Part shown: piece after piece, positions 522 to 58,466 of the stretch
Numbering within the stretch: the first letter of the stretch is position 1
How the letters are laid out: each line of letters opens with the position of its first letter
Assembly: GCA_963825055.1 (NCBI GenBank)
Contig: CAWGSK010000007.1
Span: 152,450-216,449 of the forward strand
Source of the DNA: an uncultured Gemmatimonadales bacterium
GTDB lineage: Bacteria; Gemmatimonadota; Gemmatimonadetes; Gemmatimonadales; GWC2-71-9
Reading direction: 5' to 3'
DNA length: 64,000 bases
Made by a program: the position numbers and the translations under genes
Notes under the pieces: generated by a model
What the model saw: only the letters and a program-made list of their open reading frames with translations
Databases searched by the model: none
Told to the model about the DNA's origin: nothing

Positions 522-637
522 GCGGCAGTCGGCAATCGGCAAATCGGCAGTCGGCAGTCGGCAATCGGCAATGGGCAATCGGCAGTTGCGATGGCTCCTC
601 CCCTGAAACACTACTCACTACCCACTACTCACTGCTC
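522..637. repeat. Heptamer tandem-repeat arms (TCGGCAR array and CACTACT array)
   Basis: ggcagtcggcaatcggcaaatcggcagtcggcagtcggcaatcggcaa... then cactactcactacccactactcactgctc; the ppx stop codon lies inside the second array. Confidence 0.85.
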
Positions 638-8872: not shown

Positions 8873-8935
8873 GGGCAGGAGGTCGGGAGGTCGGGAGGTC
8901 GAGGGCCGGGAGGTCGAGGACTCGGGAGGTTGAGA
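8873..8935. repeat. Octamer-type tandem repeat (GGGAGGTC)
   Basis: ggaggtcgggaggtcgggaggtcgagggccgggaggtcgaggactcgggaggttgag. Confidence 0.75.
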
Positions 8936-18011: not shown

Positions 18012-18823
18012 CGGACATCGGAGCCGCGGCAGCGGTGGTGCGTGAGCGGCTCGACGGCTTTTCCCCCGAAGTCGCCATTGTCCTGGGCTCGGGCCTTGGC
18101 GGGCTGGCCGCCCGCCTGGAGGACGCCATCCGCATTCCCTATGGCGACATACCAGGCTTCCACGCGCCATCGGTGGAAGGCCACAGGGGAGAGCTCGTGG
18201 CCGGGACCCTCGCGGGACGGCGCGTGCTGGCCCAGGCCGGCCGGTTCCACATGTATGAGGGATACGACGCGAATACCTCGGCGCTTCCGGTCCGCGTGTT
18301 CGGCGCGCTCGGCATCGGCACCATGATCGTAACCAACGCCGCCGGCGGCATCCGCCGGACCTTTCGTGCCGGCTCGCTCATGCTCATCGCGGACCACCTG
18401 AATTTCACGGGCCGGAACCCGCTGGTCGGGCCGGTGCTCGAGGGCGAGGAACGCTTCCCGGACATGTCAGACCCCTACGACAGGGGGCTCCGGGCACTCG
18501 CGCGGGACGCAGCGACACGCGAAGGGGTCATGCTGGAGGAGGGTGTCTACGCGGGACTGCTGGGGCCGAGTTACGAAACACCCGCCGAGGTCCGCATGCT
18601 GGAGCGCGTCGGCGCCGACGCCGTCGGCATGTCCACCGTCGTGGAAGTCATTGCCGCCCGGGCCCGCGGGATCCGCTGCCTCGGTTTCTCCTCGATCACC
18701 AACCCCGCCGCCGGCATCAGCGCCGAGCCCCTGTCGCACAAGGATGTGATGGCGGCGGCGGACAGGGTGACGGGGGACCTGGTGAAGGTGGTGGAAGGGG
18801 TGCTGGAGAGTAGTGAGCAGTGA
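18008..18823 (+). CDS. punA: Purine nucleoside phosphorylase (PunA/XapA type)
   Basis: IVLGSGLG, GRFHMYEG, TNAAGG, GPSYETPAE, GMST. Confidence 0.93.
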   Translation: MTDIGAAAAVVRERLDGFSPEVAIVLGSGLGGLAARLEDAIRIPYGDIPGFHAPSVEGHRGELVAGTLAGRRVLAQAGRFHMYEGYDANTSALPVRVFGALGIGTMIVTNAAGGIRRTFRAGSLMLIADHLNFTGRNPLVGPVLEGEERFPDMSDPYDRGLRALARDAATREGVMLEEGVYAGLLGPSYETPAEVRMLERVGADAVGMSTVVEVIAARARGIRCLGFSSITNPAAGISAEPLSHKDVMAAADRVTGDLVKVVEGVLESSEQ

Positions 18824-18957
18824 TTAGTGAGTAGTGATTAGTGCTTCAGGGATGGTTCCGCCCGGGCAGACGGACAGCGTCGCAAGGAGATGGCTCCGCC
18901 AATGCACTACTCACTACTCACTACTCACTAGTCACTAGTCACTAGTCACTAGTCACT
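18809..18957. repeat. Inverted heptamer arrays: (AGTAGTG-like)x5, 61-bp spacer, (CACTACT/CACTAGT)x7
   Basis: Directly visible; contains the stop codons of punA and thiD. Confidence 0.9.
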
Positions 18958-22062: not shown

Positions 22063-23264
22063 CGCGTTCCGGCCTCGCCCTGATTGCCGGGATCGGGCTG
22101 GCCGCGTGCCGGGGCGAACCACCCCGCCCGCCGGCGGATGAACTCGCCCACGTCGTGGACAGCCTCAAGCCTGCCATTGAAGCCGCTGCCGGGCTCCAGT
22201 TCACCCGCCCGGTGCGCTCGGCGCTCCGGAGCCGGGAGCAGGTGCGGGCCTATCTCATCCAGGAATTCGACGACCAGCTTCCACCCGAGCGGCTCGAAGG
22301 GCTGGAGAATGCCTATCACCTCTTCGGGCTTCTCCCGGACAGCCAACAGCTCCGCCCGCTGCTGATCGACGTCCTGACCGAGCAGGTGGCGGGCTACTAC
22401 GATCCCGACTCTACCACGCTGTACGGGGTGGCTGACCAGAAGGGGATCCAGTTGCGTGCGGTGGTGGCGCACGAACTCGTACACGCCCTCCAGGACCAGC
22501 ACTATCCACTGGACTCGCTGCTGGAACAGCAGGAGGATGGCGACCGTGCCGCGGCGGCGCAGGCCATCCTCGAGGGCCAGGCACACTACGCCTCAGTGAA
22601 GCTGCTGGTGGGAGAGGCGGCGGACGTCACGACCATGGAATTCTGGGACACGGCGCGAGAGCAGACCCGTCAGGCGCAGGAGCAGCTTCCGCGCTTCGGC
22701 AAGGCGCCCGTCGCGATCCGCGAAGAACTGCTCTTTCCGTACATCAGCGGGGCGGAGTTCATGCGCTGGTGGTTCGTGAACCACCCGGACGCGCTTCCCT
22801 TCGACGAGCGGATGCCTCTTTCCACCGAACAGATCTTCCATCCTGACCGCTACGCGGCCGGTGATGCGCCGCTCACCGTCCGGTTCACCACCTCCGACAG
22901 CACCGTCATGTTCGAGGACGACGTGGGCGAACTGGGCCTGGCCACCCTGGCGGCGTCGGCAGCCAATACCGTCGCCATTTCCACCACCCGGGCCTATGGC
23001 TGGGGCGGCGACCGCTACCGGGTGTACCGCACCCCCGGCGGCCCCGCCCTCGTCTGGTTCGTCCTGTTCGATGACCCCGCCTATGCCGACCGTTTCTACA
23101 CCGGCCTCGCCAGCGTGATGGAACGGGACTTCAAGCGGCCCGGATATGCCTTCCATCGCGAGCGGGTGGAAGTAGAGGGAAGTGCAGGGGTGAAGGTGGT
23201 GGTGGGGCCGGAGGGGTGGGAGCCACTAGAGGTAGTGCAGGTCAAAAAAGAGCGTGAGCGGTAA
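22059..23264 (+). CDS. Zincin-like lipoprotein (hypothetical)
   Basis: LAAC lipobox, VAGYYDP, VAHELVHALQDQ, LEG, FPY. Confidence 0.75.
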   Translation: MTRSGLALIAGIGLAACRGEPPRPPADELAHVVDSLKPAIEAAAGLQFTRPVRSALRSREQVRAYLIQEFDDQLPPERLEGLENAYHLFGLLPDSQQLRPLLIDVLTEQVAGYYDPDSTTLYGVADQKGIQLRAVVAHELVHALQDQHYPLDSLLEQQEDGDRAAAAQAILEGQAHYASVKLLVGEAADVTTMEFWDTAREQTRQAQEQLPRFGKAPVAIREELLFPYISGAEFMRWWFVNHPDALPFDERMPLSTEQIFHPDRYAAGDAPLTVRFTTSDSTVMFEDDVGELGLATLAASAANTVAISTTRAYGWGGDRYRVYRTPGGPALVWFVLFDDPAYADRFYTGLASVMERDFKRPGYAFHRERVEVEGSAGVKVVVGPEGWEPLEVVQVKKERER

Positions 23265-23321
23265 GCGGTAAGCGGTGAGCCGGAAAGTGAGGACAGCCTG
23301 AACGGTGAACCGTGAACGGTA
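23250..23321. repeat. Left heptamer arm (GCGGTAA/ACGGTGA)
   Basis: gagcgtgagcggtaagcggtaagcggtgagc...tgaacggtgaaccgtgaacggta. Confidence 0.85.
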
Positions 23322-23614
23322 TCAGACGGCGCGGCACCGTTGAACCAGGCCGAGCAGGAGGCGCTGAGAGCGTCTGTTGCGGGAGAGCAGGGGATCGATT
23401 GTTGCCCGGGGGATCGCTTCTGAGTCCTTGGCGAGTTCGAGTAGCTCCCCCGTCTCTATGGCGGAGCCGTAGGCGATCTCAAAATGGTGAGCCTGCCGTC
23501 GACCTGGGCCGTAGGCGTACCCTTCGGCAATGTTGAGTTGCACGGACAGAGCCGAACGCTGGATCTGGGAGAACAGTGCAGCGCACCATGGCTTCCAACA
23601 GGTACGGGCCAACC
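23322..23614 (-). pseudogene. Four-helix-bundle (23S_rRNA_IVP/TIGR02436, Avd-like) gene, 5'-truncated
   Basis: SQIQRSALSVQLNIAEGY...IAYGSAIET family motif; the expected N-terminal L.AWQ segment is missing. Confidence 0.8.
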
Positions 23615-23615
23615 C

Positions 23616-23740
23616 GAACTCGCCAGGGACGCAGAAGCGGTTCCTGCGGCCACGATAGACACCCTGCTGCTCCCGCAATCAGCGGTGACCAGCGCCTCCT
23701 CCTCGGCATGCTCAAGCAACACCGCCCCTTCAAATCCCCT
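23616..23740 (+). pseudogene. Inverted 3' fragment of a paralogous four-helix-bundle gene
   Basis: ELARDAEAVPAATIDTLL /frameshift/ QRLLLGMLKQHRP aligns to ELAKDSEAIPRATIDPLL..QRLLLGLVQRCR of the minus-strand copy. Confidence 0.75.
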
Positions 23741-23804
23741 TCACCGATTCACCGTTTACCGCTCACGCTGTTTCCGTTTTGCCGTTCACCGTTCACCGCT
23801 CACC
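23741..23804. repeat. Right heptamer arm (TCACCGT/TTACCGC), inverted relative to the left arm
   Basis: tcaccgattcaccgtttaccgctcacgc...gttcaccgttcaccgctcacc; contains the DUF445 stop codon. Confidence 0.85.
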
Positions 23805-25362
23805 CTAATAAGACATTCACGCCAAACGCCACCAGCCCCACCACCGCCCCCAGCACATATCCGAGTCTGACGATCAGGTCCAGCTCCCGCTGGGTCACGT
23901 CCTTCACGATCTGCTCCATCCGCTGCGTACTGAAGCCCAGCACCTTCTGCTCCACCATCTCCTGCACCTTGAACTGCTCCACCACCGCGGGGATCTGTCG
24001 CTGCACCCATCCCCAGGCCGCGGTGGTGACGGCTTCCTCGATCTTCGCCGTCATCTCCGGCCCCATCCACCCGGCCGGCCGGCCGATGGGCCGGTCCAGC
24101 AGGTGGTCCGCCACGCTCCGGACGGCCTCCTCCACCCAGTGACGTCCCCGCTCGCCGCCCAGGGCGTCGGCGGCGAAGGCGGCCACCTGCGCCGGGGGGA
24201 TGGCTTCGAGCAGGTCACCCCAGGTCCGCTGCTCGGCGGCGGTGAGCGCCCGGTCCACGGTCTGGCCGATGACCCGGCGGGTTCCCTCGTCCCGCGCCAC
24301 CCGCATCAGCCAGTCACCCAGGGTCTCGGCGAGCCCCTCTACCCGGTCCTCGCCGAGGCGGCGGAACCGCTCGGCCAGCGGCACGCGCAGGAAGTTCACC
24401 ACGGCGTCGTTGACCGCCCGCGCGACCTGGCTCTTCACGCCCGGCTCGTGGAGCCCCTCGGCCAGGCGGTCGAGTCCGCGCCGCTCGAACCCGTCCACCA
24501 GCCGCTCGATGGTGCGGTCGGTGACCATCAGCTTGGCCAGCACCCGCTCGTGGATAAGCAGGTCCCGGACTGTGTGATCGAATGCGTCGCGGAGGGAGAC
24601 CTGGATCTTCCGGCGGGCATCGGGATCGGCCAGGATGCCGCTCAGCCGGTCCACCGCCACGGGCAGGTAGTCCGTGATGCCCTGCTCCACGGCCCCGATC
24701 AGACCCGGGGGGAGTCGGTCCAGCATTGCCCGGTCGTCGTGGGAGAGCTTGTCCAGCTGGTCACGCACGAAGCCCCGGAGCGTACGTTCCAGCTCCTCAC
24801 CCTGCGCGAGCTGGGTGACCCAGTCCTCCACTTTCCGGCTGAGGGACTCGCGCCGTTCAGCAGTCAGCAGCTCACCCAGCGACCGGTCGCCCACCTCCTC
24901 CCGGAGCTTCGTCATCCACTCAGTCACCCGGGCCTCGAAGGCCGGCGAGCGGGCGTAGTCCGCCAGTCGCTCGGCCAGCCCGCTGCTCACCCGGGGCAGG
25001 GAAGACTCGATGGCCTCCAGCACCGGCGGACTGAGCAGGCCGCGGAGGGGGCCCCGCTCCGTTTCCATGATGTCCGTGACCGCCCGGCGGACTGCGTCGT
25101 CGAAGGCCTTCCGGAGGGCCGGGTCGGACAGGCGTCGGGCCAGGTCTTCGCTGGTGAGCAGGCGCTCACCAACGGCCTTGCCGACGCTTTTGGCGAGGCG
25201 GGGCTTGTTCTTGGGGATGGCCCCGTGGAAGCGGAAGGGGCCGAACCCGGAGGGCTCATGGGGGTGGAACAGCATCCACACCGCCACGGCGTTGGTGATC
25301 CCGCCGGAGAGGGCGCCCACCAGCACCGTGACCAGGCCCGTGATGAGGGTCGAGGAATCCAT
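23800..25362 (-). CDS. DUF445-family membrane-anchored protein
   Basis: GGITNAVAVWMLFHP...GAIPKNK and ELDLIVRLGYVLGAVVG termini. Confidence 0.85.
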   Translation of the reverse strand: MDSSTLITGLVTVLVGALSGGITNAVAVWMLFHPHEPSGFGPFRFHGAIPKNKPRLAKSVGKAVGERLLTSEDLARRLSDPALRKAFDDAVRRAVTDIMETERGPLRGLLSPPVLEAIESSLPRVSSGLAERLADYARSPAFEARVTEWMTKLREEVGDRSLGELLTAERRESLSRKVEDWVTQLAQGEELERTLRGFVRDQLDKLSHDDRAMLDRLPPGLIGAVEQGITDYLPVAVDRLSGILADPDARRKIQVSLRDAFDHTVRDLLIHERVLAKLMVTDRTIERLVDGFERRGLDRLAEGLHEPGVKSQVARAVNDAVVNFLRVPLAERFRRLGEDRVEGLAETLGDWLMRVARDEGTRRVIGQTVDRALTAAEQRTWGDLLEAIPPAQVAAFAADALGGERGRHWVEEAVRSVADHLLDRPIGRPAGWMGPEMTAKIEEAVTTAAWGWVQRQIPAVVEQFKVQEMVEQKVLGFSTQRMEQIVKDVTQRELDLIVRLGYVLGAVVGLVAFGVNVLLG

Positions 25363-29435: not shown

Positions 29436-29508
29436 ACCACAGAGAGCACAAAGGACACAAAGAAAAAGTAAAAACTGTACTTAGTCTGTTCTTCGTGCCC
29501 TTTGTGGT
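29436..29508. repeat. Inverted 9-mer repeat arms (ACCACAGAG/CACAAAG ... CTTTGTGGT)
   Basis: accacagagagcacaaaggacacaaag ... cttcgtgccctttgtggt. Confidence 0.7.
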
Positions 29509-31996: not shown

Positions 31997-32086
31997 GTGA
32001 ACGGTAAGCGGTTAGCGGTAAGCGGTGAGCGGGGTCGCAATTCGCGTCTTGTTCCCGCATTCACTGCTCACCGCTCACTGCTCACG
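31997..32086. repeat. Empty inverted heptamer arms (GCGGTRA ... TCACYGC)
   Basis: gtgaacggtaagcggttagcggtaagcggtgagcgg, 27-bp spacer, ttcactgctcaccgctcactgctcacg. Confidence 0.85.
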
Positions 32087-33182: not shown

Positions 33183-38430
<5,248 letters not shown>

Positions 38431-41945: not shown

Positions 41946-42542
41946 TTCGAGGGGTAATGGTGATGGTGGGTATTCCCTGGCTCGATTGTATGTGCTACTA
42001 GTTGTGTTCCTCTTATGTTTGGAGAGTGTGCCGGAGTCAGTTTTGTAGTGCGCGTCGGGCTGCGCTCGATTTCGATGAAATAAGATTTGGTTTCGTGTGG
42101 GTGTTCTTGTACTTGAGCCTCGAGTACCTTTTTTGGTGGATAAAGATGTATGTTAGAGCTCGACCTCCTCTTGTGTCTGATGGCTCATCAGTTGCCGGTG
42201 TTGTACGGGCGTTCTCGGCGCTCTCCGCCGTGCGATAGGTAAGCTATGAGACGGAGTGGATGTAGGTTTTTGATTTGTTTTGACTTAGGTAGTCTATATT
42301 GTTTATCGGCGCGTTGCTGTTCCGTCGGTTGGTTTTGCAGTTACGTTTAATTTTGGTTTGTTGTTCTTAATTTGGACGGACAGGCGGACAGGACGGACAA
42401 GGCGGACAGGCACGAATCGGCCCCGGTCAGTGTGATCGGGGCCGATGTGTTTCCGTCCCACGCAGTCGCGGCTCTGGACAGAGAGAGCCCGGCGAATACA
42501 CTCGCCGGAACAGCCTCCTGACCACGAACCAGGCGGAGCTCC

Positions 42543-43676: not shown

Positions 43677-43910
43677 ATGAGTGAGCGTACCGTATACTGG
43701 GTCACCCCAGGGAGCGACGGCGACTGGCGCGTGCTCCGCGAAGGCGCCGAGCGCGCCGCGAGCGTCCACGAAAACAAGGACGACGCCCTCGCCGAGGCCA
43801 AGCGGATGGCCAAATCCGCCCCGCTCGGCCAGGTGAAGGTCCAGAAGGCCGACGGGAAGATTCAGGAGGAGTTCACGTACGGGAAGGACCCGGCGAGCTC
43901 GCCCGGATAG
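43677..43910 (+). CDS. DUF2188-family protein
   Basis: WRVLREGAERAS..H...DG.IQEEFTYGKDP; strong GGAGG RBS. Confidence 0.85.
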   Translation: MSERTVYWVTPGSDGDWRVLREGAERAASVHENKDDALAEAKRMAKSAPLGQVKVQKADGKIQEEFTYGKDPASSPG

Positions 43911-44005
43911 GACGGACAGGCGGACAAGGCGGTCGGTGGAGCTCCCAGGTTCATCGACCGTTCGTCACTTGAGTGACAGATCGGCCGAGTCGCGACCTTG
44001 GTCGC

Positions 44006-44095
44006 GAAGAGGGCGGAAGTGAACAGGGCGGACGTGAACAGGGCGGACGTGAGCAGGGCGGACCTGAACAGGGCGGACGTGAACAGGGCGGGCGA
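44006..44095. repeat. 15-mer tandem repeat (GAACAGGGCGGACGT)
   Basis: About 5-6 units; same family as 57790-57900. Confidence 0.85.
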
Positions 44096-44114
44096 GGCCC
44101 GTTCACGGAAGTCT

Positions 44115-44207
44115 TGTCATTTCGAGCGCAGCGAGAAATCTCAAGAGTCGGTTGCTGTCGAGGGCTGCTCTTGAGATCTCTCGGGCCTGGCGGCCCTCGA
44201 GATGACA
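44115..44207. repeat. 93-bp palindromic REP/MITE-like element, copy 1
   Basis: TGTCATTTCGAG...AAATCTCAAGAG / CTCTTGAGATCT...CTCGAGATGACA; followed by a CCCCTCGA octamer array. Confidence 0.85.
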
Positions 44208-44461
44208 CGATCTTCGGAGCGACCCCTCGACCCCTCGACCCCTCGACCCCTCGACTCCTCAACTCCAGCCCTTTACCCACCCCCTCCCACCCCCTAGGTT
44301 CCGGCTCCCGGCGCTCTCGGGCCCCTGTCGCCGGGATCTGTTCGGCCCTGCTGGTCCCCCGCTGTACCTCAGGATTTTCCGACGCAGACTTGACGGTCCC
44401 ATTTTCGAGGGCAATATTGGCCGCCCGTCCAAGTTCCCTCAGGCTTGGAGTCTCAGATACA

Positions 44462-44992: not shown

Positions 44993-45055
44993 TCGTTGAG
45001 TCGCTAAATCGTTGAGTCGCACGACTCAACCACTCAACGACTAAACCACTCAACG
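44993..45055. repeat. Empty inverted octamer arms (GTTGAGTC / GACTCAAC)
   Basis: tcgttgagtcgctaaatcgttgagtcg-ca-cgactcaaccactcaacgactaaaccactcaacg. Confidence 0.85.
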
Positions 45056-45060
45056 CCCTT

Positions 45061-45798
45061 GTGCCCTCCCTCCACCACCTCTCCTACTCCCCCGGCGGCA
45101 CCCAGCCTCCCCATTACCACCCCGAGTCCTCCATCACCATCATCCTGGGCGGCAGCCTGACCGAGCGGGTCGGCCGCCGAACCGTCGAGGCCGGGCCCCT
45201 GTCCGTGGTGGTGAAACCTGCCGGGGTCACGCACGCCAACCGCCTGGGCAGCACGGGCGCGAGCACCGTCCAGGTCGAGCTGGGCGGCCTGGTGGATGCC
45301 GACACGCCCGAACGGCTGCTCGGCCCATGGCGCTGGTTCCACACGGGCAGCGCGGCGCGCCGCATGCTCCGGATTCTCAGGGGATGGCGCGGCGGGGTAG
45401 AGGAGCCGCTGGAGATGGAGCGCGCGGTCTGTGACTGCATCGGCGCCCTGGAGATGCCACGCGAGGCTGATGTCCCCCGATGGCTCAGCCGCGTCGCGGA
45501 GGAGCTGGATGACACCGCAGCCTCCCCTCCGCCCGTAACCGAACTGGCCGGGCGCGCCGGCCTGCATCCGGTGTCGCTTGCCCGGCTCTTCCGCCGCCAT
45601 TTCGGGACCTCGATCACCGAACGCATCCGCCGCCGGCGGGTCGAGTGCGCCGCCGGACTGCTCGCCGCCGACTCGGCCGGGCTGGCGGAGATCGCCCTCA
45701 CCACGGGCTTTGCCGACCAGAGCCACCTCAACCGGGTCTTCCGTCGCGAGACCGGCCTCACCCCTGGCGCCTACCGGCGGCTGGCCCGACCCGCCTGA
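45061..45798 (+). CDS. AraC-family transcriptional regulator with cupin domain
   Basis: HYH, H.N, GLHPVSLARLFRRHFG, GFADQSHLNRVFRRETGLTPGAYR. Confidence 0.9.
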   Translation: MPSLHHLSYSPGGTQPPHYHPESSITIILGGSLTERVGRRTVEAGPLSVVVKPAGVTHANRLGSTGASTVQVELGGLVDADTPERLLGPWRWFHTGSAARRMLRILRGWRGGVEEPLEMERAVCDCIGALEMPREADVPRWLSRVAEELDDTAASPPPVTELAGRAGLHPVSLARLFRRHFGTSITERIRRRRVECAAGLLAADSAGLAEIALTTGFADQSHLNRVFRRETGLTPGAYRRLARPA

Positions 45799-45898
45799 GC
45801 CGGGCGGTTCCAATCGTTCAAGAATCTGCCCGGTGCTCCGGATACCTTCCGGGAAAGGCCGGGACCCTCCCGGTCCGTGTCATGTGCCCGGAGGAGAG

Positions 45899-47416
45899 AT
45901 GGATGCATCACACGCGGGGCTGGTCCTGCTGCTGGCCGGGGCTGCGGCCTGCGCCGGCGGCGCCAGGGCCGGCGCCCAGTCAGCGGTCGTGAACAACGAC
46001 CCGAGAATCGACGCCTGGGTGACCCGGTCGTTCGATTCGACACTGGCCCCGGGCATGTCGGTCGCCGTGGTCGTGGGCGATTCGGTGGTGTACCTCAAGG
46101 GCTTCGGCTATGCCGACCGCGAGGCACGGCGGCCCGCCACCCCGCGCTCGATCTTCTATATCGCCTCCGCCACCAAGTCGTTCACGGGAATGGCCGCGGC
46201 CATCCTCGACACCCGCGGCACGATTGACCTCGACAGCTCGCTGGCGCACTACCTCCCCGATCTCCGGCTGCAACCACCGCTCGACGCCGGCACGATCACC
46301 CTGCGTGAGCTGCTGACCCACACGCACGGCACCAACTCCAACCCCATCGTCATTCGCCTCGCCTTTACCGGCCAGCACGACCCGGCCACCCTGGAGCGGC
46401 TCCTGGCCAGGGCCGAGCCCCTCGAGAGCGGCCGGAGATTCCGGTACAGCAACTTCGGTTACAACGCGGCCACCATCGCGCTCGACCATGCCCTGCACAA
46501 ACGATGGCAGGACGTGCTCCAGGACGAACTCTTCAATCCGCTCGGCATGAAGTCGACGACCGCGTACATCTCCCGGATCGACCGGGACCGCCTGGCGATG
46601 CCCTACACCACGGAGCCCGGGGGGCAGGAGCGGCTCCCCTACGGGAAGGAAGATTCGAACATGCAGTCCGCCGGGGGCCTGGTGACCACCGCGGAAGACC
46701 TGACGCACTGGATGATCGCCAACCTGAACAGTGGCCAGTGGAACGGCCGCCAGGCCCTGCCGGCGGCGGCGGTCTCGCTGGCGCAGACGCCCATGGTGGA
46801 CCTCGATGCCTCCTATCAGGGGTTCGAGCGGAAGCAGTACTCGCTCGGCCTGTACCACGGGACATACGACGGCGAGAAGTTCATGCACCACTTCGGCGGT
46901 TTCTCCGGCTTCCACTCCCACATCTCCTACATGCCGGAGCGGAAGATCGGCGTTGCGGTGCTGGTCAACAACGACGGACTCGGCAGCTATCTCGCGGTGA
47001 CCACCGCGAAGGGGATCTACCAGATCCTGCTCGACCGGCCTGACGTGGGGCATACCCTGGATACCCTGCTCGCCGGGCGTCAGAAGAACGTCGGCGAGGA
47101 TCTGGAGGGTATCCGCGAGGATCGCGCGCGCCGTGCCGCACGCCCACAGGACCTTCCGCATCCGCTCGAAGCCTACGCCGGGACCTACCGGAATGAGGAC
47201 TTCGGCACGATGGTCTGGACCGTCAGGAACGGAAAGCTCCACGCCACCTGGGGCGTCGCCGAGTCGGATGCGGAGGTGTATGACGGGGCGAAGAGCCAGC
47301 TCCGGGAGGAGCTGCTCGGCGGAGGCGGCGTGATTCAATTCGAATTTGACGGGAGCGACCGCGCGCAGCGGCTGATCAAGGTCGGCCCGAACGAGGTGTT
47401 CGAGAGGGTGGATTAG
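45899..47416 (+). CDS. Serine hydrolase (beta-lactamase/AmpC-like family) with C-terminal DUF3471-like domain
   Basis: IASATK (SxxK), LLTHT, YSN, HFGG, YAGTY. Confidence 0.88.
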   Translation: MDASHAGLVLLLAGAAACAGGARAGAQSAVVNNDPRIDAWVTRSFDSTLAPGMSVAVVVGDSVVYLKGFGYADREARRPATPRSIFYIASATKSFTGMAAAILDTRGTIDLDSSLAHYLPDLRLQPPLDAGTITLRELLTHTHGTNSNPIVIRLAFTGQHDPATLERLLARAEPLESGRRFRYSNFGYNAATIALDHALHKRWQDVLQDELFNPLGMKSTTAYISRIDRDRLAMPYTTEPGGQERLPYGKEDSNMQSAGGLVTTAEDLTHWMIANLNSGQWNGRQALPAAAVSLAQTPMVDLDASYQGFERKQYSLGLYHGTYDGEKFMHHFGGFSGFHSHISYMPERKIGVAVLVNNDGLGSYLAVTTAKGIYQILLDRPDVGHTLDTLLAGRQKNVGEDLEGIREDRARRAARPQDLPHPLEAYAGTYRNEDFGTMVWTVRNGKLHATWGVAESDAEVYDGAKSQLREELLGGGGVIQFEFDGSDRAQRLIKVGPNEVFERVD

Positions 47417-47626
47417 AGAGCAGGGCGGTCGAGACGGTCCAGCGAGACCCTCGTCGCCGGAAGCGACGACGTGCCGAGCAGTGACCGAAGGGAATACCAT
47501 GACGCGAGCGACGCGGCCCACAGGCGCGGCAATCCCGCGCCTCGGCCGCGAGTGAACGCTTGGCGGCTTCAGCCGCGTGGAAAGGTCGGTCGTGAATAAG
47601 GCGGTGGTGCCGCTTCAAGGAAGCCG

Positions 47627-47719
47627 TGTCATTTCGAGCGCAGCGAGAAATCTCAAGAGTCGGATGTTATCGAAAGCGGCCCTTGAGATCTCTCGGGCCT
47701 GGCGGCCCTCGAGATGACA
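47627..47719. repeat. 93-bp palindromic REP/MITE-like element, copy 2
   Basis: Arms essentially identical to copy 1, loop diverged; followed by CGCCTCCA and GACTCAAC octamer arrays up to ~47862. Confidence 0.85.
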
Positions 47720-47856
47720 CGATATTCGGAACGCCTCCACGCCTCCACGCCTCCACGCCTCCACGCCTCCACGCCTCCACGCCTCCACGCCTCAACGACT
47801 CAACGACCTCAACCACTCACCCACTCAACGACTCAACGACTCAACCACTCAACCCC

Positions 47857-48753
47857 TCAACGCCTCTCCCTCCACCCCTCCACAATCCCGGCAATCTTCG
47901 CTATCCACACCTCCCCGTCCGGCAGTTCATCGAACCCCCGGGTCAGCACCGTCAGCACCCAGGGCGACCCGTCCTGCGGATAGACGATGCCCGCGTCGTG
48001 CGCGATGCGGGTGATCGAGCCGGTCTTGTGCGCCACCCTGGTGCCCGGCGGCAGCCCGGCGGGGATTCCCTCATTGAACTCCTGGCCAGCAAGGATCGCG
48101 ATCATCACGTCAGTGGACGCCGGGGACGCCGCCCGCCCGTCGGCGATGGCCGTGAACAGTGCGTCCAGGTCCCGCGCGGTGGTGGTGTTGCTCATTCCCT
48201 GCTCGTAGGCCTTGATGTCCTCCACGCCTCGCAACACGTGGATGGAGTCCGCGCCGAACTCATGCGCGGTGGAGTCCACGCGCTTCGGATCCAGCATCTC
48301 GATCAGCACGTTGGTGGCGAGATTGCTGCTCCAGCGGATCATGTGTTCCGCCATGAACCGGATCGACACCTTCCGGTCCGTAAGCGCGTACATGAGCGAG
48401 TCAGAGTCGTCGGCCGGGCTCAGGGAATAGGGGGAGCCATCCACGATGGAGGTGAACCGGTTCACCACCGGGACCGAGTCCTCCCAGTCAAAGTCCCCGG
48501 CGTCCACCCGGCGGGCCAGCTCGATCAGGACCGGTACCTTCATCGTGCTCGCCGCATGATACCGGCGGTCAGCGTCGATGTAGATTGTGTCTCCGTTGCC
48601 AAGGTCGCGGTACGCGACGCTGATCTCCGCCCCGGAGGCCGCGATGGCCTGCAGGAGGGAGTCCCGGAGGGCCGGGAGGGCAGGATTCTGCCCCCGGAGG
48701 GGGGCCGGGAGGAGGAACAGGGCGGCCACCAGGCCGAGGCACGGGATTCGCAT
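47857..48753 (-). CDS. Class A beta-lactamase-like serine hydrolase
   Basis: AASTMK, SSN, AHKTG, HDAGIV; signal peptide. Confidence 0.85.
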   Translation of the reverse strand: MRIPCLGLVAALFLLPAPLRGQNPALPALRDSLLQAIAASGAEISVAYRDLGNGDTIYIDADRRYHAASTMKVPVLIELARRVDAGDFDWEDSVPVVNRFTSIVDGSPYSLSPADDSDSLMYALTDRKVSIRFMAEHMIRWSSNLATNVLIEMLDPKRVDSTAHEFGADSIHVLRGVEDIKAYEQGMSNTTTARDLDALFTAIADGRAASPASTDVMIAILAGQEFNEGIPAGLPPGTRVAHKTGSITRIAHDAGIVYPQDGSPWVLTVLTRGFDELPDGEVWIAKIAGIVEGWRERR

Positions 48754-48817
48754 ACCGTAAGGGTAACCCCGTTCTCCCACGGACCGGCCAGGATGGCCGG
48801 CAACTGCAAAGTCGAGC

Positions 48818-49219
48818 ATGTCAGACCGTCTCCGTTTCAGCCACTTCGAAATCGAACGCCTGGTGAACGGCCGCTGTCGGGCCGATGTCCGGCTTACCTG
48901 GCAGGACGAGAGCGAGTATCACGGGGAATCTGCTGGCCTGGCGAGCCAGGCCGGCGAACTGCGCTGTGCGGCCCAGGCCTGCGTCAACGCCCTGGCCAAG
49001 TCCGTTGAAGGAAAAGTGACATTCGAGCTCTTCGGCGTAAAGGCTGTGCGGGCCTTCGATTCCACCGTCATCATCGTATCCCTGGCCGCCCAGAACGGCG
49101 ACGGGGGCCACCGTCTGGTCGGCTGCTGCCTGACGGACGAGGACCCGGCCCGCGGCGCGGCCCTGGCCGTGCTGAACGCGACAAACCGGATTCTGGGCAA
49201 TACGCTGTTCATGCGGTAA
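48818..49219 (+). CDS. Hypothetical protein (C-terminal AVLNATNR motif)
   Basis: Compact ORF with host codon usage. Confidence 0.65.
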   Translation: MSDRLRFSHFEIERLVNGRCRADVRLTWQDESEYHGESAGLASQAGELRCAAQACVNALAKSVEGKVTFELFGVKAVRAFDSTVIIVSLAAQNGDGGHRLVGCCLTDEDPARGAALAVLNATNRILGNTLFMR

Positions 49220-53432: not shown

Positions 53433-53972
53433 GGTGGACGAAGGTAGGCAATTGCCCGGCCAAAGGATAGCCGCGACATTGTAACACATTTTTCAACAAC
53501 AACTTAGCAGTTTTCTGCACCGTCATTTTGACCCACTTTTCAGCCCATGCGGAGGTGGTTTAGTGATGTGAGTATTCGCTCGCTTCTGCCAAAATGCGAG
53601 TATCTGCTCACAGGTGCTGAAGCAGAACATTGACCGATAACGACTTGGGAACTGGCAGCCCGAACGTGCACGAATATGCATCTGACTGCCCGAAAGGCAG
53701 GGCGGACAAGGCGGACAAGGCGGGACAGGGCGGACAGGGCGGAGAAGGCGGACAGGACAGACGTCCGTCGCCTTCAGGCGACGGGGTGCCGAGCAGCGGC
53801 TTCAGCCGCGTGGGACCGGACGGACACGACGGTCAGGGCGGCGAGGTGACCGAAGCCGCGACTCAACCACTCAACTCCTACTTTCTACTCCCTGCTCCCT
53901 TAACCCTTCACCCTTCACCGTTTACCGTTCACCCCACCACCGCCTCCTCTCCCCCAGACGGAGCTCCATCTC

Positions 53973-57106: not shown

Positions 57107-57786
57107 CACCGCGCCTGGCGCTCGTCCTCCTGCTCACACTGCCACTGGCCGGCTGCGGGGGGCACGCCGACCGCGAAGGGCTGCCGCTCGTGCACCTCCC
57201 GGCCGACAGGCCGGGTGACACTGCCGCCGTCATCATTTCGGGCGACGGCGGCTGGGCGGGGATCGACCGGGGAATCGGCAACTATCTCGCCGACCACGGC
57301 GTCAGCGTCGTCGGACTGAACGCACTGCGCTACTTCTGGGTCCCGCGCACGCCTGACGGTACCGCGCGGCACCTTGCCCGACTCATCGCAACGACGCTGC
57401 AGGAGGACGGGGCCCACCACGTGCTGCTCATCGGCTACTCGCGGGGGGCGGACGTGTTGCCCTTCGTCGTCCCCCTGCTGCCCGATTCCCTTCGCCGGTT
57501 CGTGGCCTCCGTGGCGCTCGTGGCCCCGTCACGCCACGCGAGTTTCGAATTTCACTTCATCGACCTCATCACGAGCGGAAAGGGCTCACTCGACGTCGTG
57601 CGGGCCATCACGGGTCTGCGGGGAATCCGCGTGCTCTGCATCTACGGCGTCGATGATCCTGATGCCGCCTGCCCCCACCTCCCACCGGAAGCGGCGAGGA
57701 TCGTCAGGATGAAGGGTGGGCACCATCTGGACGGGGCATACCAGGAGATAGCGAAGAGGATCCTGAGGGAGACGACAGAGAAATAG
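57103..57786 (+). CDS. acvB: AcvB/VirJ-family lysyl-PG hydrolase
   Basis: SGDGGW, LRYFW, IGYSRGAD, CIYG, GGHH; coupled to mprF. Confidence 0.88.
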   Translation: MTPRLALVLLLTLPLAGCGGHADREGLPLVHLPADRPGDTAAVIISGDGGWAGIDRGIGNYLADHGVSVVGLNALRYFWVPRTPDGTARHLARLIATTLQEDGAHHVLLIGYSRGADVLPFVVPLLPDSLRRFVASVALVAPSRHASFEFHFIDLITSGKGSLDVVRAITGLRGIRVLCIYGVDDPDAACPHLPPEAARIVRMKGGHHLDGAYQEIAKRILRETTEK

Positions 57787-58299
57787 CGGGGACAGGGCGG
57801 TCGTGAAGAGGGCGGTCGCAAAGAGGGCGGACGGGAACAACGGACGAAGAGGGCGGACGTGAAGAGGGCGGACGAGAAAAGGGCGGACGAGAACAGGGCG
57901 GTCAGGCGGTCGGGCGGTCGGGCGGTCAGGCGGACGGGGTCTGTCCGGGGGGTCGCGCATCGAGTCATAAAGTTTCCAGAGCAGCTTGCTCGCTCGCTCT
58001 CGCACCTCCTCAGTCCTTCGGAATTCTTCGGGACTGAGGTAGCCCAGCTCGTTAGCGAGGCGCAACAGGTAGGTCAGCTCCGACAGGGAACCCCTCGCAA
58101 GATCCAGGAATCGACGGAACTCTCGTGCGCCTCTCCTCGAAGATCCCTCGACGATGTTGGCAGCTGCCGACACAGCCGCGCGTCGTACCTGGGAGGTGAG
58201 GCCGTAGCGTTCATCCTGGGGCCACCTACCGGTCAATTCGTAGACAAGCAGCACGAGACGATGGCAGTGTTGCCAGGCGATCAGATTCTCGAAGCGCAT
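57586..58299 (-). CDS. Four-helix-bundle (23S_rRNA_IVP/TIGR02436, Avd-like) protein; domain ends ~57955 and the ORF reads on through the repeats
   Basis: FENLIAWQ, WPQDERYGLTSQVRRAAVSAAANIVEG, FLDLARGSLSE. Confidence 0.9.
   Translation of the reverse strand: MRFENLIAWQHCHRLVLLVYELTGRWPQDERYGLTSQVRRAAVSAAANIVEGSSRRGAREFRRFLDLARGSLSELTYLLRLANELGYLSPEEFRRTEEVRERASKLLWKLYDSMRDPPDRPRPPDRPTARPPDRPVLVRPFLVRPLHVRPLRPLFPSALFATALFTTALSPLFLCRLPQDPLRYLLVCPVQMVPTLHPDDPRRFRWEVGAGGIRIIDAVDAEHADSPQTRDGPHDVE
57790..57940. repeat. Left arm: 15-mer then 8-mer GGGCGGWC repeats
   Basis: gaagagggcggacgt-type units followed by gggcggtc/aggcggtc units. Confidence 0.85.
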
Positions 58300-58346: not shown

Positions 58347-58466
58347 GTCCGCCCGTCCGCCCGTCCGCCCGTCCGCCCGTCCGCCCGTCCGCCCGTCCGC
58401 CCGTCCGCCCGTCCGCCCGTCCGCCCGTCCGCCCGTCCGCCCGTCCGCCCGTCCGCCCGTCCGCCC
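58347..58466. repeat. Right arm: perfect (GTCCGCCC)x15
   Basis: 120 nt of perfect octamer, reverse complement of GGGCGGAC. Confidence 0.95.

Follow-up and report, generated by a model that had tools for sequence, protein, structure and literature searches.

What are the small four-helix-bundle genes that stand between inverted arrays of short tandem repeats, and how do genes and arrays come to be where they are? The question arises from a 64,000-nt stretch of an uncultured Gemmatimonadales genome (the window), in which two such loci lie at 23.3 kb and 58 kb. The host assembly (G000) contains 3.53 Mb in 35 contigs and is 87% complete. A cassette here is a G-rich arm, a four-helix-bundle gene, and a C-rich arm. 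We found a fixed architecture and polarity, one repeat unit per paralog, presence or absence of the whole cassette at orthologous junctions, and several units at one junction. On balance we lean toward a reading in which cassettes move whole, gene-less arms are probably their non-autonomous offspring, and a ring of the protein recognizes its own unit. The arms, the gene, and the scattered gene-less arms are likely an overlooked mobile-DNA system and a possible source of bacterial seven-base repeats.

The cassette at 58 kb has three parts.

57794..57938, plus strand: G-rich arm of 15-mers and GGCGGTC(A/G) octamers, downstream of the 58 kb gene.
57961..58299, minus strand: four-helix-bundle domain of 113 aa with the Xcc0516/Avd fold; the open reading frame (ORF) runs on to 57586 without a stop.
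58347..58466, plus strand: C-rich arm, GTCCGCCC in 15 perfect copies, upstream of the 58 kb gene.

The ORF scored 105.9 bits against TIGR02436 (cut-off, 24), and the ORF at 23.3 kb scored 59.3 bits. An earlier reading of the window from its letters alone (the sequence-only reading) had reported two four-helix-bundle loci and inverted short-tandem arrays, and the family assignment and the arrays both held. Both loci lie between protein-coding genes and not in an rRNA gene. No rRNA context was found in the 260-bp flanks of the other six loci in G000. The 58 kb ORF (57586-58299; 237 aa) has no stop after the domain and reads through its own arm, which is either a true extension or a sequencing error.

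A profile search of the assembly retrieved eight PF05635 genes. They are divergent single copies. A G-rich tandem arm precedes every one of them, and the reverse complement of that arm, C-rich, follows. Genes were called with a purpose-made simple gene caller (3099 genes; 88% coding), and each was scored for same-family inverted arms in G-left/C-right order. Such arms bracket 8/8 PF05635 genes and 5/3058 other called genes, a genome-wide enrichment much stronger than chance would give. One of these five lies at C12:673011-674123. It is a 702-bp membrane-protein-like gene inside nested palindromic elements and GTTGAGTC arms.

A tandem-repeat scan of G000 found 691 arrays, 527 of them intergenic. 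Arrays occur in 98/215 convergent, 209/1010 co-directional, and 48/340 divergent intergenic regions. Where a stop codon faces the region, the median distance from array to stop is 0 to 7 bp, and the sense strand is the G-rich one. Arms supply the stop codons of adjoining genes or abut them. The intergenic arrays form eight large families, and six of these include the arms of a PF05635 paralog.

The polarity of the arms is fixed, as the sequence-only reading had it. Inverted pairs in G000 were G-left/C-right in 49/54 cases, including 43/43 with a gap of up to 114 bp; the five exceptions are spaced 192 to 1054 bp. Opposite-polarity pairs within one intergenic region run G-rich then C-rich in 231/235 cases (100/104 same-family pairs and 131/131 different-family pairs). 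The different-family arms are not complementary, so pairing cannot account for that class. This polarity between unrelated units is the least explained result of the analysis. It could come from successive insertion with partial loss, from addition at both ends of a break, or from position-specific selection. Stop codons were rejected as its cause, since only 56/135 G-strand units contain one. Directional array growth was also rejected. The outer sides seemed more repeat-like (141 versus 75 arrays), yet the excess over shuffled sequence is equal (0.041 and 0.041).

The link between protein and unit was examined in 40 relatives from the order together with G000. The family was present in 34 genomes with 142 matches. 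Three split matches were merged and two below the cut-off were excluded, which left 137 loci, 131 with full flanks; the genomes are kin and hence not independent samples. An alignment free of any assumed unit found inverted flank homology at 112/131 loci (direct, 7/131; mismatched, 8/500). A common inverted unit of 7 to 9 bp was found at 76/131 loci (direct control, 6/131; mismatched, 15/300). The 79 labelled loci have 72 distinct units. The unit follows the protein and not the host: unit distance is 0.856 to the nearest protein in another genome and 0.961 between paralogs of the same genome (0/5000 permutations). At least 10 matches to GGCGGWCN were present in 8/10 genomes with the matching protein clade, its bounds set by eye on a FastTree tree, and in 0/31 without it. 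In the two clade genomes that fall short of this, the arms of their own gene predict a variant, and it is present (17 and 29 matches). In G029, which has a single paralog, 6/7 sampled arrays consist of the gene's own unit. Sampling of genomes that lack the gene yielded 1 array over 298 kb from four of them and, from a fifth, 7 arrays over 24 kb with units made almost wholly of G and C. AGGGTGT was tried as a discriminating pattern and dropped for too few matches.

Some loci of the order are arranged differently. In L084 (G020) and L118 (G019), the gene end on one side is the same, and the cassettes that come after it are opposite in orientation and differ in unit. L074, L076, L052, and L090 (G031) and L103 (G027) have inverted arms of long or complex units rather than heptamers. 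They form a distinct protein clade.

The pattern extends beyond the order. The cross-phylum sample was the best 80 of at least 586 confirmed loci in species genomes, 77 of them with full flanks, and is biased to one subfamily. Inverted flank homology was found at 61/77 loci (direct, 7/77; mismatched, 13/300) and a common tandem unit at 56/77 (direct, 6/77; mismatched, 41/300). The unit was a heptamer at 54 of these 56 loci, which span 14 named phyla. The family was found in 30/72,556 plasmid records and 0/50,697 phage records. Viral contigs yielded no family relative; three Avd matches, weak and partial, were left unused. At L201 and L227 (Okeania), the usual bracket appears to be replaced by two arms on the downstream side of the gene, a G-rich one and then a C-rich one (L227 from its score pattern).

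Orthologous junctions show what comes and goes. In Mesorhizobium, the 30 genomes closest by flank were taken out of 61. Twelve of the 30 have the cassette at the junction, and the other 18 have a plain region of 29 to 33 bp, none with arms (0/18). The state of this junction changed at least nine times on the trees of either flank. At a Brevundimonas junction, the cassette is present in 4/30 genomes, and the cassette-free junctions have no arms (0/26). Two different paralogs were met at a single junction, with a separate unit for each. No target-site duplication was evident by eye, and filled alleles replace the native stop region. Co-conversion tracts showed a slight excess beside the Mesorhizobium junction (0.924 versus 0.895). 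The hotspots, presence/absence polymorphism, and unit turnover at one site proposed from the window are supported.

A second Mesorhizobium junction was reached from a gene-less pair, and both flanks were present in 15/28 loci. Twelve of the 15 are gene-less pairs of four unit types, two are empty, and one has a palindromic element. None has a PF05635 gene (0/15). All four units recur as cassette arms at other places in the genus. One cassette type has at its inner end a 13-mer that a search of 343,668 bp met nowhere else than in four cassettes of this type and in the spacer of one gene-less pair with the same unit. G069 has an internal deletion in the gene at the first junction, and the 8-bp unit of both arms resembles that of an intact paralog in the same genome; this single case is no more than suggestive. 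The absence of arms from cassette-free junctions (0/44), together with a gene-less junction that was never filled, indicates that the cassette acts as a unit. Gene-less pairs look like separate insertions, not vacated sites. In G000, no remnants of PF05635 genes were found in intergenic regions below E=1. The G000 spacers were also considered as cassette leftovers and rejected; 58/84 had no second match, and the rest were mostly palindromic elements or further arms.

The 23.3 kb locus was less simple than a single gene between arms.

23251..23320, plus strand: G-rich arm of (A/G)(A/G)CGGT(A/G) heptamers in two blocks; covers the stop codon of the left gene (23262-23264).
23322..23618, minus strand: 3' part (about 300 bp) of paralog A, a four-helix-bundle gene (PF05635/TIGR02436) whose 5' end the assembly lacks.
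23615..23735, plus strand: 3' part (about 120 bp) of related paralog B, opposite in orientation to paralog A.
23740..23804, plus strand: C-rich arm of the TTCACCG family; covers the stop codon of the convergent right gene (23800-23802).

The plus strand of 23612-23806 aligns with the minus strand of 23250-23445, and these are the 3' ends of two paralogs facing outward. The family assignment stands, and the single gene of the sequence-only reading is a composite. Short-read contigs of run X1 extend the two paralogs separately, each into its own upstream sequence. Record 3 (paralog A) differs once from 23239-23618 and continues for 166 nt. Record 4 matches 23615-23770 with 2 differences and 3 gaps (paralog B). 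The assembly has three extra single bases relative to one X1 contig, and no contig spans the site. Run X1 may be the source of the assembly, so its contigs are not independent support. Two alleles merged in assembly and a tandem pair with a deletion both fit. Under either origin, two related cassettes appear to have occupied the site. Ten relatives besides G000 have both flanking genes. In six the gap is -4 to 15 bp, in one it is 43 bp, two have unrelated inserts, and one was unresolvable. A PF05635 gene was absent from the junction in these relatives, the unresolvable one apart.

The sequence-only reading took gene-bearing and gene-less arms as filled and empty states of standing landing pads, with small genes moving in and out between retained arms. 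The meeting of two paralogs at 23.3 kb is in keeping with this, as are the five other genes found between same-family arms in G000. Retained arms are what the junctions lack: 0/44 cassette-free orthologous junctions keep them, and 0/12 arm-pair alleles at the second Mesorhizobium junction have a gene-filled counterpart. We regard landing pads as extremely improbable, and at the three junctions tested they are largely refuted. The whole cassette is what is present or absent.

What might the protein do? The 58 kb domain was modelled with a predicted local distance difference test score (pLDDT) of 97. In a VIA-align structure search, the model matched Xcc0516 (2GSC) with Z 21.3 and a root-mean-square deviation (rmsd) of 0.9 A over 109 aligned residues. 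It matched Avd with Z 15.0 and rmsd 1.8 A over 108 residues (8UB7) and with Z 14.7 (4DWL). BT_0352 gave Z 16.6, and unrelated bundles gave 12.4. Both sequence-level PDB matches of the domain have five chains. A four-copy prediction scored 0.82 against 0.00 for the best control, and its runs agreed in at least 82% of contacts with pLDDT of at least 87. The mark used was reached by 20/30 solved homo-pairs and 1/23 single chains. The predicted assembly may have passed through likeness to solved pentamers.

Avd itself belongs to diversity-generating retroelements (DGRs); the present protein has the fold and oligomeric ring of Avd. The DGR Avd profile NF033474 gave 27.3 bits (cut-off, 80) and no match at E<=1e-15 in G000. 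The family gene thus falls below that cut-off, and it has no adjacent reverse transcriptase (RT). Two true Avd loci are the converse: they have no arms, and an RT motif follows the gene. The sequence-only reading had proposed to look for an RT or nuclease co-occurring across genomes, and no co-occurring RT was found. A PF00078 search found an RT in only 5/34 gene-bearing genomes, leaving 29/34 without, and found none in G000 (87% complete). No transposase lies in cis in the cassette, as that reading had noted. In trans, only the Y1 family (PF01797) was searched. It was not found in G016, G022, and G029, which hold the gene and arrays; one of four genomes tested was positive.

These searches bear on a telomerase-like mechanism, in which an RT and an Avd-like ring would use cassette RNA as template and add G-rich units to both 3' ends of a break. 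It would suit the 231/235 G-then-C pairs, including the 131/131 non-complementary ones, and the fold common to Avd. The scarcity of PF00078 and its absence from G000 speak against it, as do the loss of an apparent outward array decay after composition control and the lack of gene remnants beside gene-less arms in G000. We consider it very improbable.

In the reading we favor, a G-rich arm, gene, and C-rich arm would be inserted or lost as a whole at gene junctions. Gene-less arm pairs would be mobile, non-autonomous units that insert separately. The Avd-like ring may bind its own repeat unit and act as the specificity factor, by analogy with the binding of DGR RNA by Avd. Because no RT or Y1 transposase travels with the system, strand work would fall to host repair or recombination enzymes. 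In predicted RNA folds of five cassettes, made without a shuffle control, the two arms pair as an outer stem. Such a stem may make insertion tolerable, as for 23S rRNA intervening sequences.

The position of the arms suits another explanation, a host regulatory network. The ring would bind the repeat on transcripts near stop codons and control termination or stability, and the arrays would be selected sites. Arms lie a median of 0 to 7 bp from stop codons with the G-rich strand as sense; Avd binds a defined RNA segment (passages of PMC6182149); and MacGregor proposed a network of this kind for TAACTGA repeats (passages of PMC4679880). Among close relatives, though, the unit at one junction is any of four or is missing, and at one site cassettes appear and disappear repeatedly. 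Turnover fits this variety better than conserved regulation does, and we judge the regulatory explanation improbable.

Several results weigh against the mobile-cassette reading. The overall correlation of protein and unit is small (Mantel rho 0.089; 8/2000 permutations) and is expected from co-inheritance alone. Gene identity tracks flank identity at the Mesorhizobium junction (rho 0.62), so much of the inheritance is vertical. Two large array families of G000 (ATCGGGT and AAGGTCG; 36 and 25 arrays) have no paralog in the 87% complete assembly, and G001 has 87 variant matches with no cognate gene found. GGCAGTA arrays occur in 6/12 Mesorhizobium genomes without a PF05635 match, with 57 matches in G062. 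In these arrays, Mesorhizobium genomes that have the gene differ weakly from those that lack it (p=0.074; rank correlation 0.43; related genomes). The GGCAGTA unit was found in 0/20 further cassettes, though several of their genomes hold GGCAGTA arrays. Several gene-less pairs lie in Mesorhizobium genomes whose checked cassettes bear other units. Under a short-unit filter, the arrays per 100 kb numbered just 1 in G031 (8 paralogs) and 3 in G020 (7 paralogs). No catalytic motif or catalytic partner was found for the protein, and the conserved residues Q37, R40, E51, and E74 lie within the predicted subunit interface. Dependence on the gene is weakened by these points but not excluded, because REPIN populations are reported to outlast the loss of their RAYT (passages of 10.1101/2021.07.10.451892).

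The same points suit a passenger explanation. The pairs would spread by host slippage, template switching, and recombination, the gene would persist inside a pair, and the link of unit and protein would be co-inheritance. Arrays without a cognate gene, the vertical signal, the failure to find an enzyme, and the Coxiella ORF, reported in passages of PMC4990558 as decaying and not expressed, all lean this way. It leaves unexplained why 8/8 family genes and almost no others lie inside arms, why the pattern recurs in 14 named phyla among the best 80 of at least 586 loci, and why arrays are so scarce in four sampled genomes that lack the gene (1 in 298 kb; a fifth had 7 in 24 kb). We think it unlikely, and the mobile cassette is kept.

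The best description is a REPIN/RAYT-like system built on tandem repeats that fails the tests for membership in REPIN-RAYT. As described in passages of 10.1101/2021.07.10.451892, REPIN-RAYT also has a chromosomal gene flanked by its own repeat, inverted gene-less extragenic pairs with a variable spacer, several gene types per genome with their own repeat populations, repeats that outlast gene loss, and rarity on plasmids. Here, in contrast, the arms are 7- to 9-bp tandem arrays and not palindromes, and the protein has an all-helical Avd-like fold (PF05635) and is not an HUH/Y1 transposase. In addition, presence of the cassette varies at its site, and the polarity extends to arms of unrelated units.

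The 23S rRNA intervening sequences with an S23p/IVP ORF are also similar. In passages of PMC4990558 and 10.1101/2024.02.27.582315, the same family lies inside terminal inverted repeats that form a stem, at scattered insertion sites; in Coxiella, GACAGAT heptamers lie inside those repeats (PMC4990558). The present cassettes differ in standing at junctions of protein-coding genes, with hundreds of gene-less arm copies.

Insertion sequences and miniature inverted-repeat transposable elements have inverted ends and occur in gene-carrying and internally deleted forms, as here. The present cassette has no transposase, and the G000 paralogs are divergent single copies, unlike a multicopy insertion sequence.

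Published arrays of heptamers and octamers resemble the arms. The passages on GGGAATC (PMC4692102), the paired sites of Geobacter metallireducens (PMC2700814), and TAACTGA (PMC4679880) likewise describe inverted pairs at variable distance, with the G-rich sense strand within 50 bp of stop codons. Those passages and the supplements (12/19 files for PMC2700814) contained no link to the family. A Xanthomonas table in the supplement of PMC4692102 lists, without comment, a GGGAATC array that overlaps the start of XCC0516. Insertion of the family among cas genes is already in print, in the passages available. So are paired heptamer arrays of the same polarity, the Coxiella heptamers, and the array at XCC0516. 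We found no statement of a general link between the family and tandem arms in the open full-text literature, outside which most subscription papers lie.

A bolder claim is that the four-helix-bundle family is the agent behind 7- to 8-base tandem repeats. The paralog would set the unit and drive its writing or insertion at gene ends, with the G-rich strand inward and no transposase or RT of its own. We regard this as doubtful, though a serious candidate. A protein that writes or moves repeats would be categorically new; the logic otherwise resembles REPIN-RAYT. If the family does write repeats, it would define a new class of repeat-generating mobile element, with the rRNA intervening sequences as a special case and DGR Avd as a co-opted relative. 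The cassettes join two questions, the role of the S23/IVP four-helix-bundle proteins and the origin of abundant lineage-specific heptamer arrays, and offer a clue to how Avd and rRNA intervening sequences arose. If binding holds, they are a natural library of small rings with different sequence preferences.

The window contains further arrays and arms, all listed on the plus strand.

522..637: mixed pair; G arm of GGCA(A/G)TC type, C arm of CACTACT type.
8878..8930: lone G arm of GGAGGTCG type; most similar to the arms that flank the paralog at G000 C12:281050.
18808..18957: gene-less AGTAGTG/ACTAGTG-family pair whose cognate gene is at G000 C13:112759.
29436..29508: gene-less inverted pair of GxxExxY-gene type, not a four-helix-bundle unit; a parallel system.
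31997..32085: gene-less AACGGTG-family pair, with a spacer of 28 bp between the G arm (31997-32032) and the C arm (32061-32085).
42374..42411: lone G arm of the GGCGGACA family.
43904..44260: composite site; GGCGGAC-family G arms at 43904-43932 and 44006-44091, C arm CGACCCCT at 44220-44260.
44994..45055: gene-less GTTGAGTC-family pair whose cognate gene is at G000 C2:172520.
47731..47883: long C arm of ACGCCTCC and then ACTCAAC units, adjoining a palindromic element.
53698..53934: mixed site; a GGCGGACA-family G arm with C arms from two further families.

Palindromic elements of other types stand between the arms of the composite site. At 522-637, 44006-44260, and 53698-53934, the arrays of the sequence-only reading are present, and the paired arms come from different, non-complementary families. 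At 29436-29508 the inverted pair is likewise real, and its arms match those of the GxxExxY gene at C13:290996.

The sequence-only reading had proposed a test for enrichment of the arms beside GxxExxY and GIY-YIG genes too. The GxxExxY, small GIY-YIG, DUF559, and Y1 genes of G000 do not share the four-helix-bundle arms and have their own distinct inverted arms, with gene-less copies in the window. A small gene with its own repeat thus recurs across unrelated proteins. The GxxExxY (TIGR04256) genes at G000 C13:290996 and C30:97637 have inverted arms of CAC(A/G)(A/G)AG type. Palindromic GTCAT...ATGAC elements at 44109-44210 and 47626-47725 match both flanks of the small GIY-YIG gene at G000 C3:91267. 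The part of PMC3733652 available does not connect CGTC-type palindromes with GIY-YIG genes, the term being absent from it; the pairing given here comes from the flank matches in G000. The element at 43960-44005 matches the flanks of the Y1 transposase gene at G000 C3:21452, a RAYT-like arrangement. The DUF559 gene at G000 C8:64416-64700 lies between multiple inverted CCCCCTCTCC...GGAGAGGGGG palindromes, a motif with 40 matches genome-wide.

Identical arrays and identically scoring GIY-YIG matches occur at C12:202619 and C25:3476 and at C12:423022 and C26:228 in G000, which suggests duplicated assembly segments. The window also contains about 4.7 kb of A-rich low-complexity DNA at 33500-38200, with GC of 16-51% and AT skew of up to 0.94 in a contig of 67% GC. 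This tract terminates near a C run and resembles long-read assembly junk. A class A beta-lactamase-like gene lies at 47857-48819 (111.6 bits; cut-off, 200) and a class C/AmpH-like gene, below cut-offs, at 45578-47416. The two genes oppose each other across a repeat-rich region.

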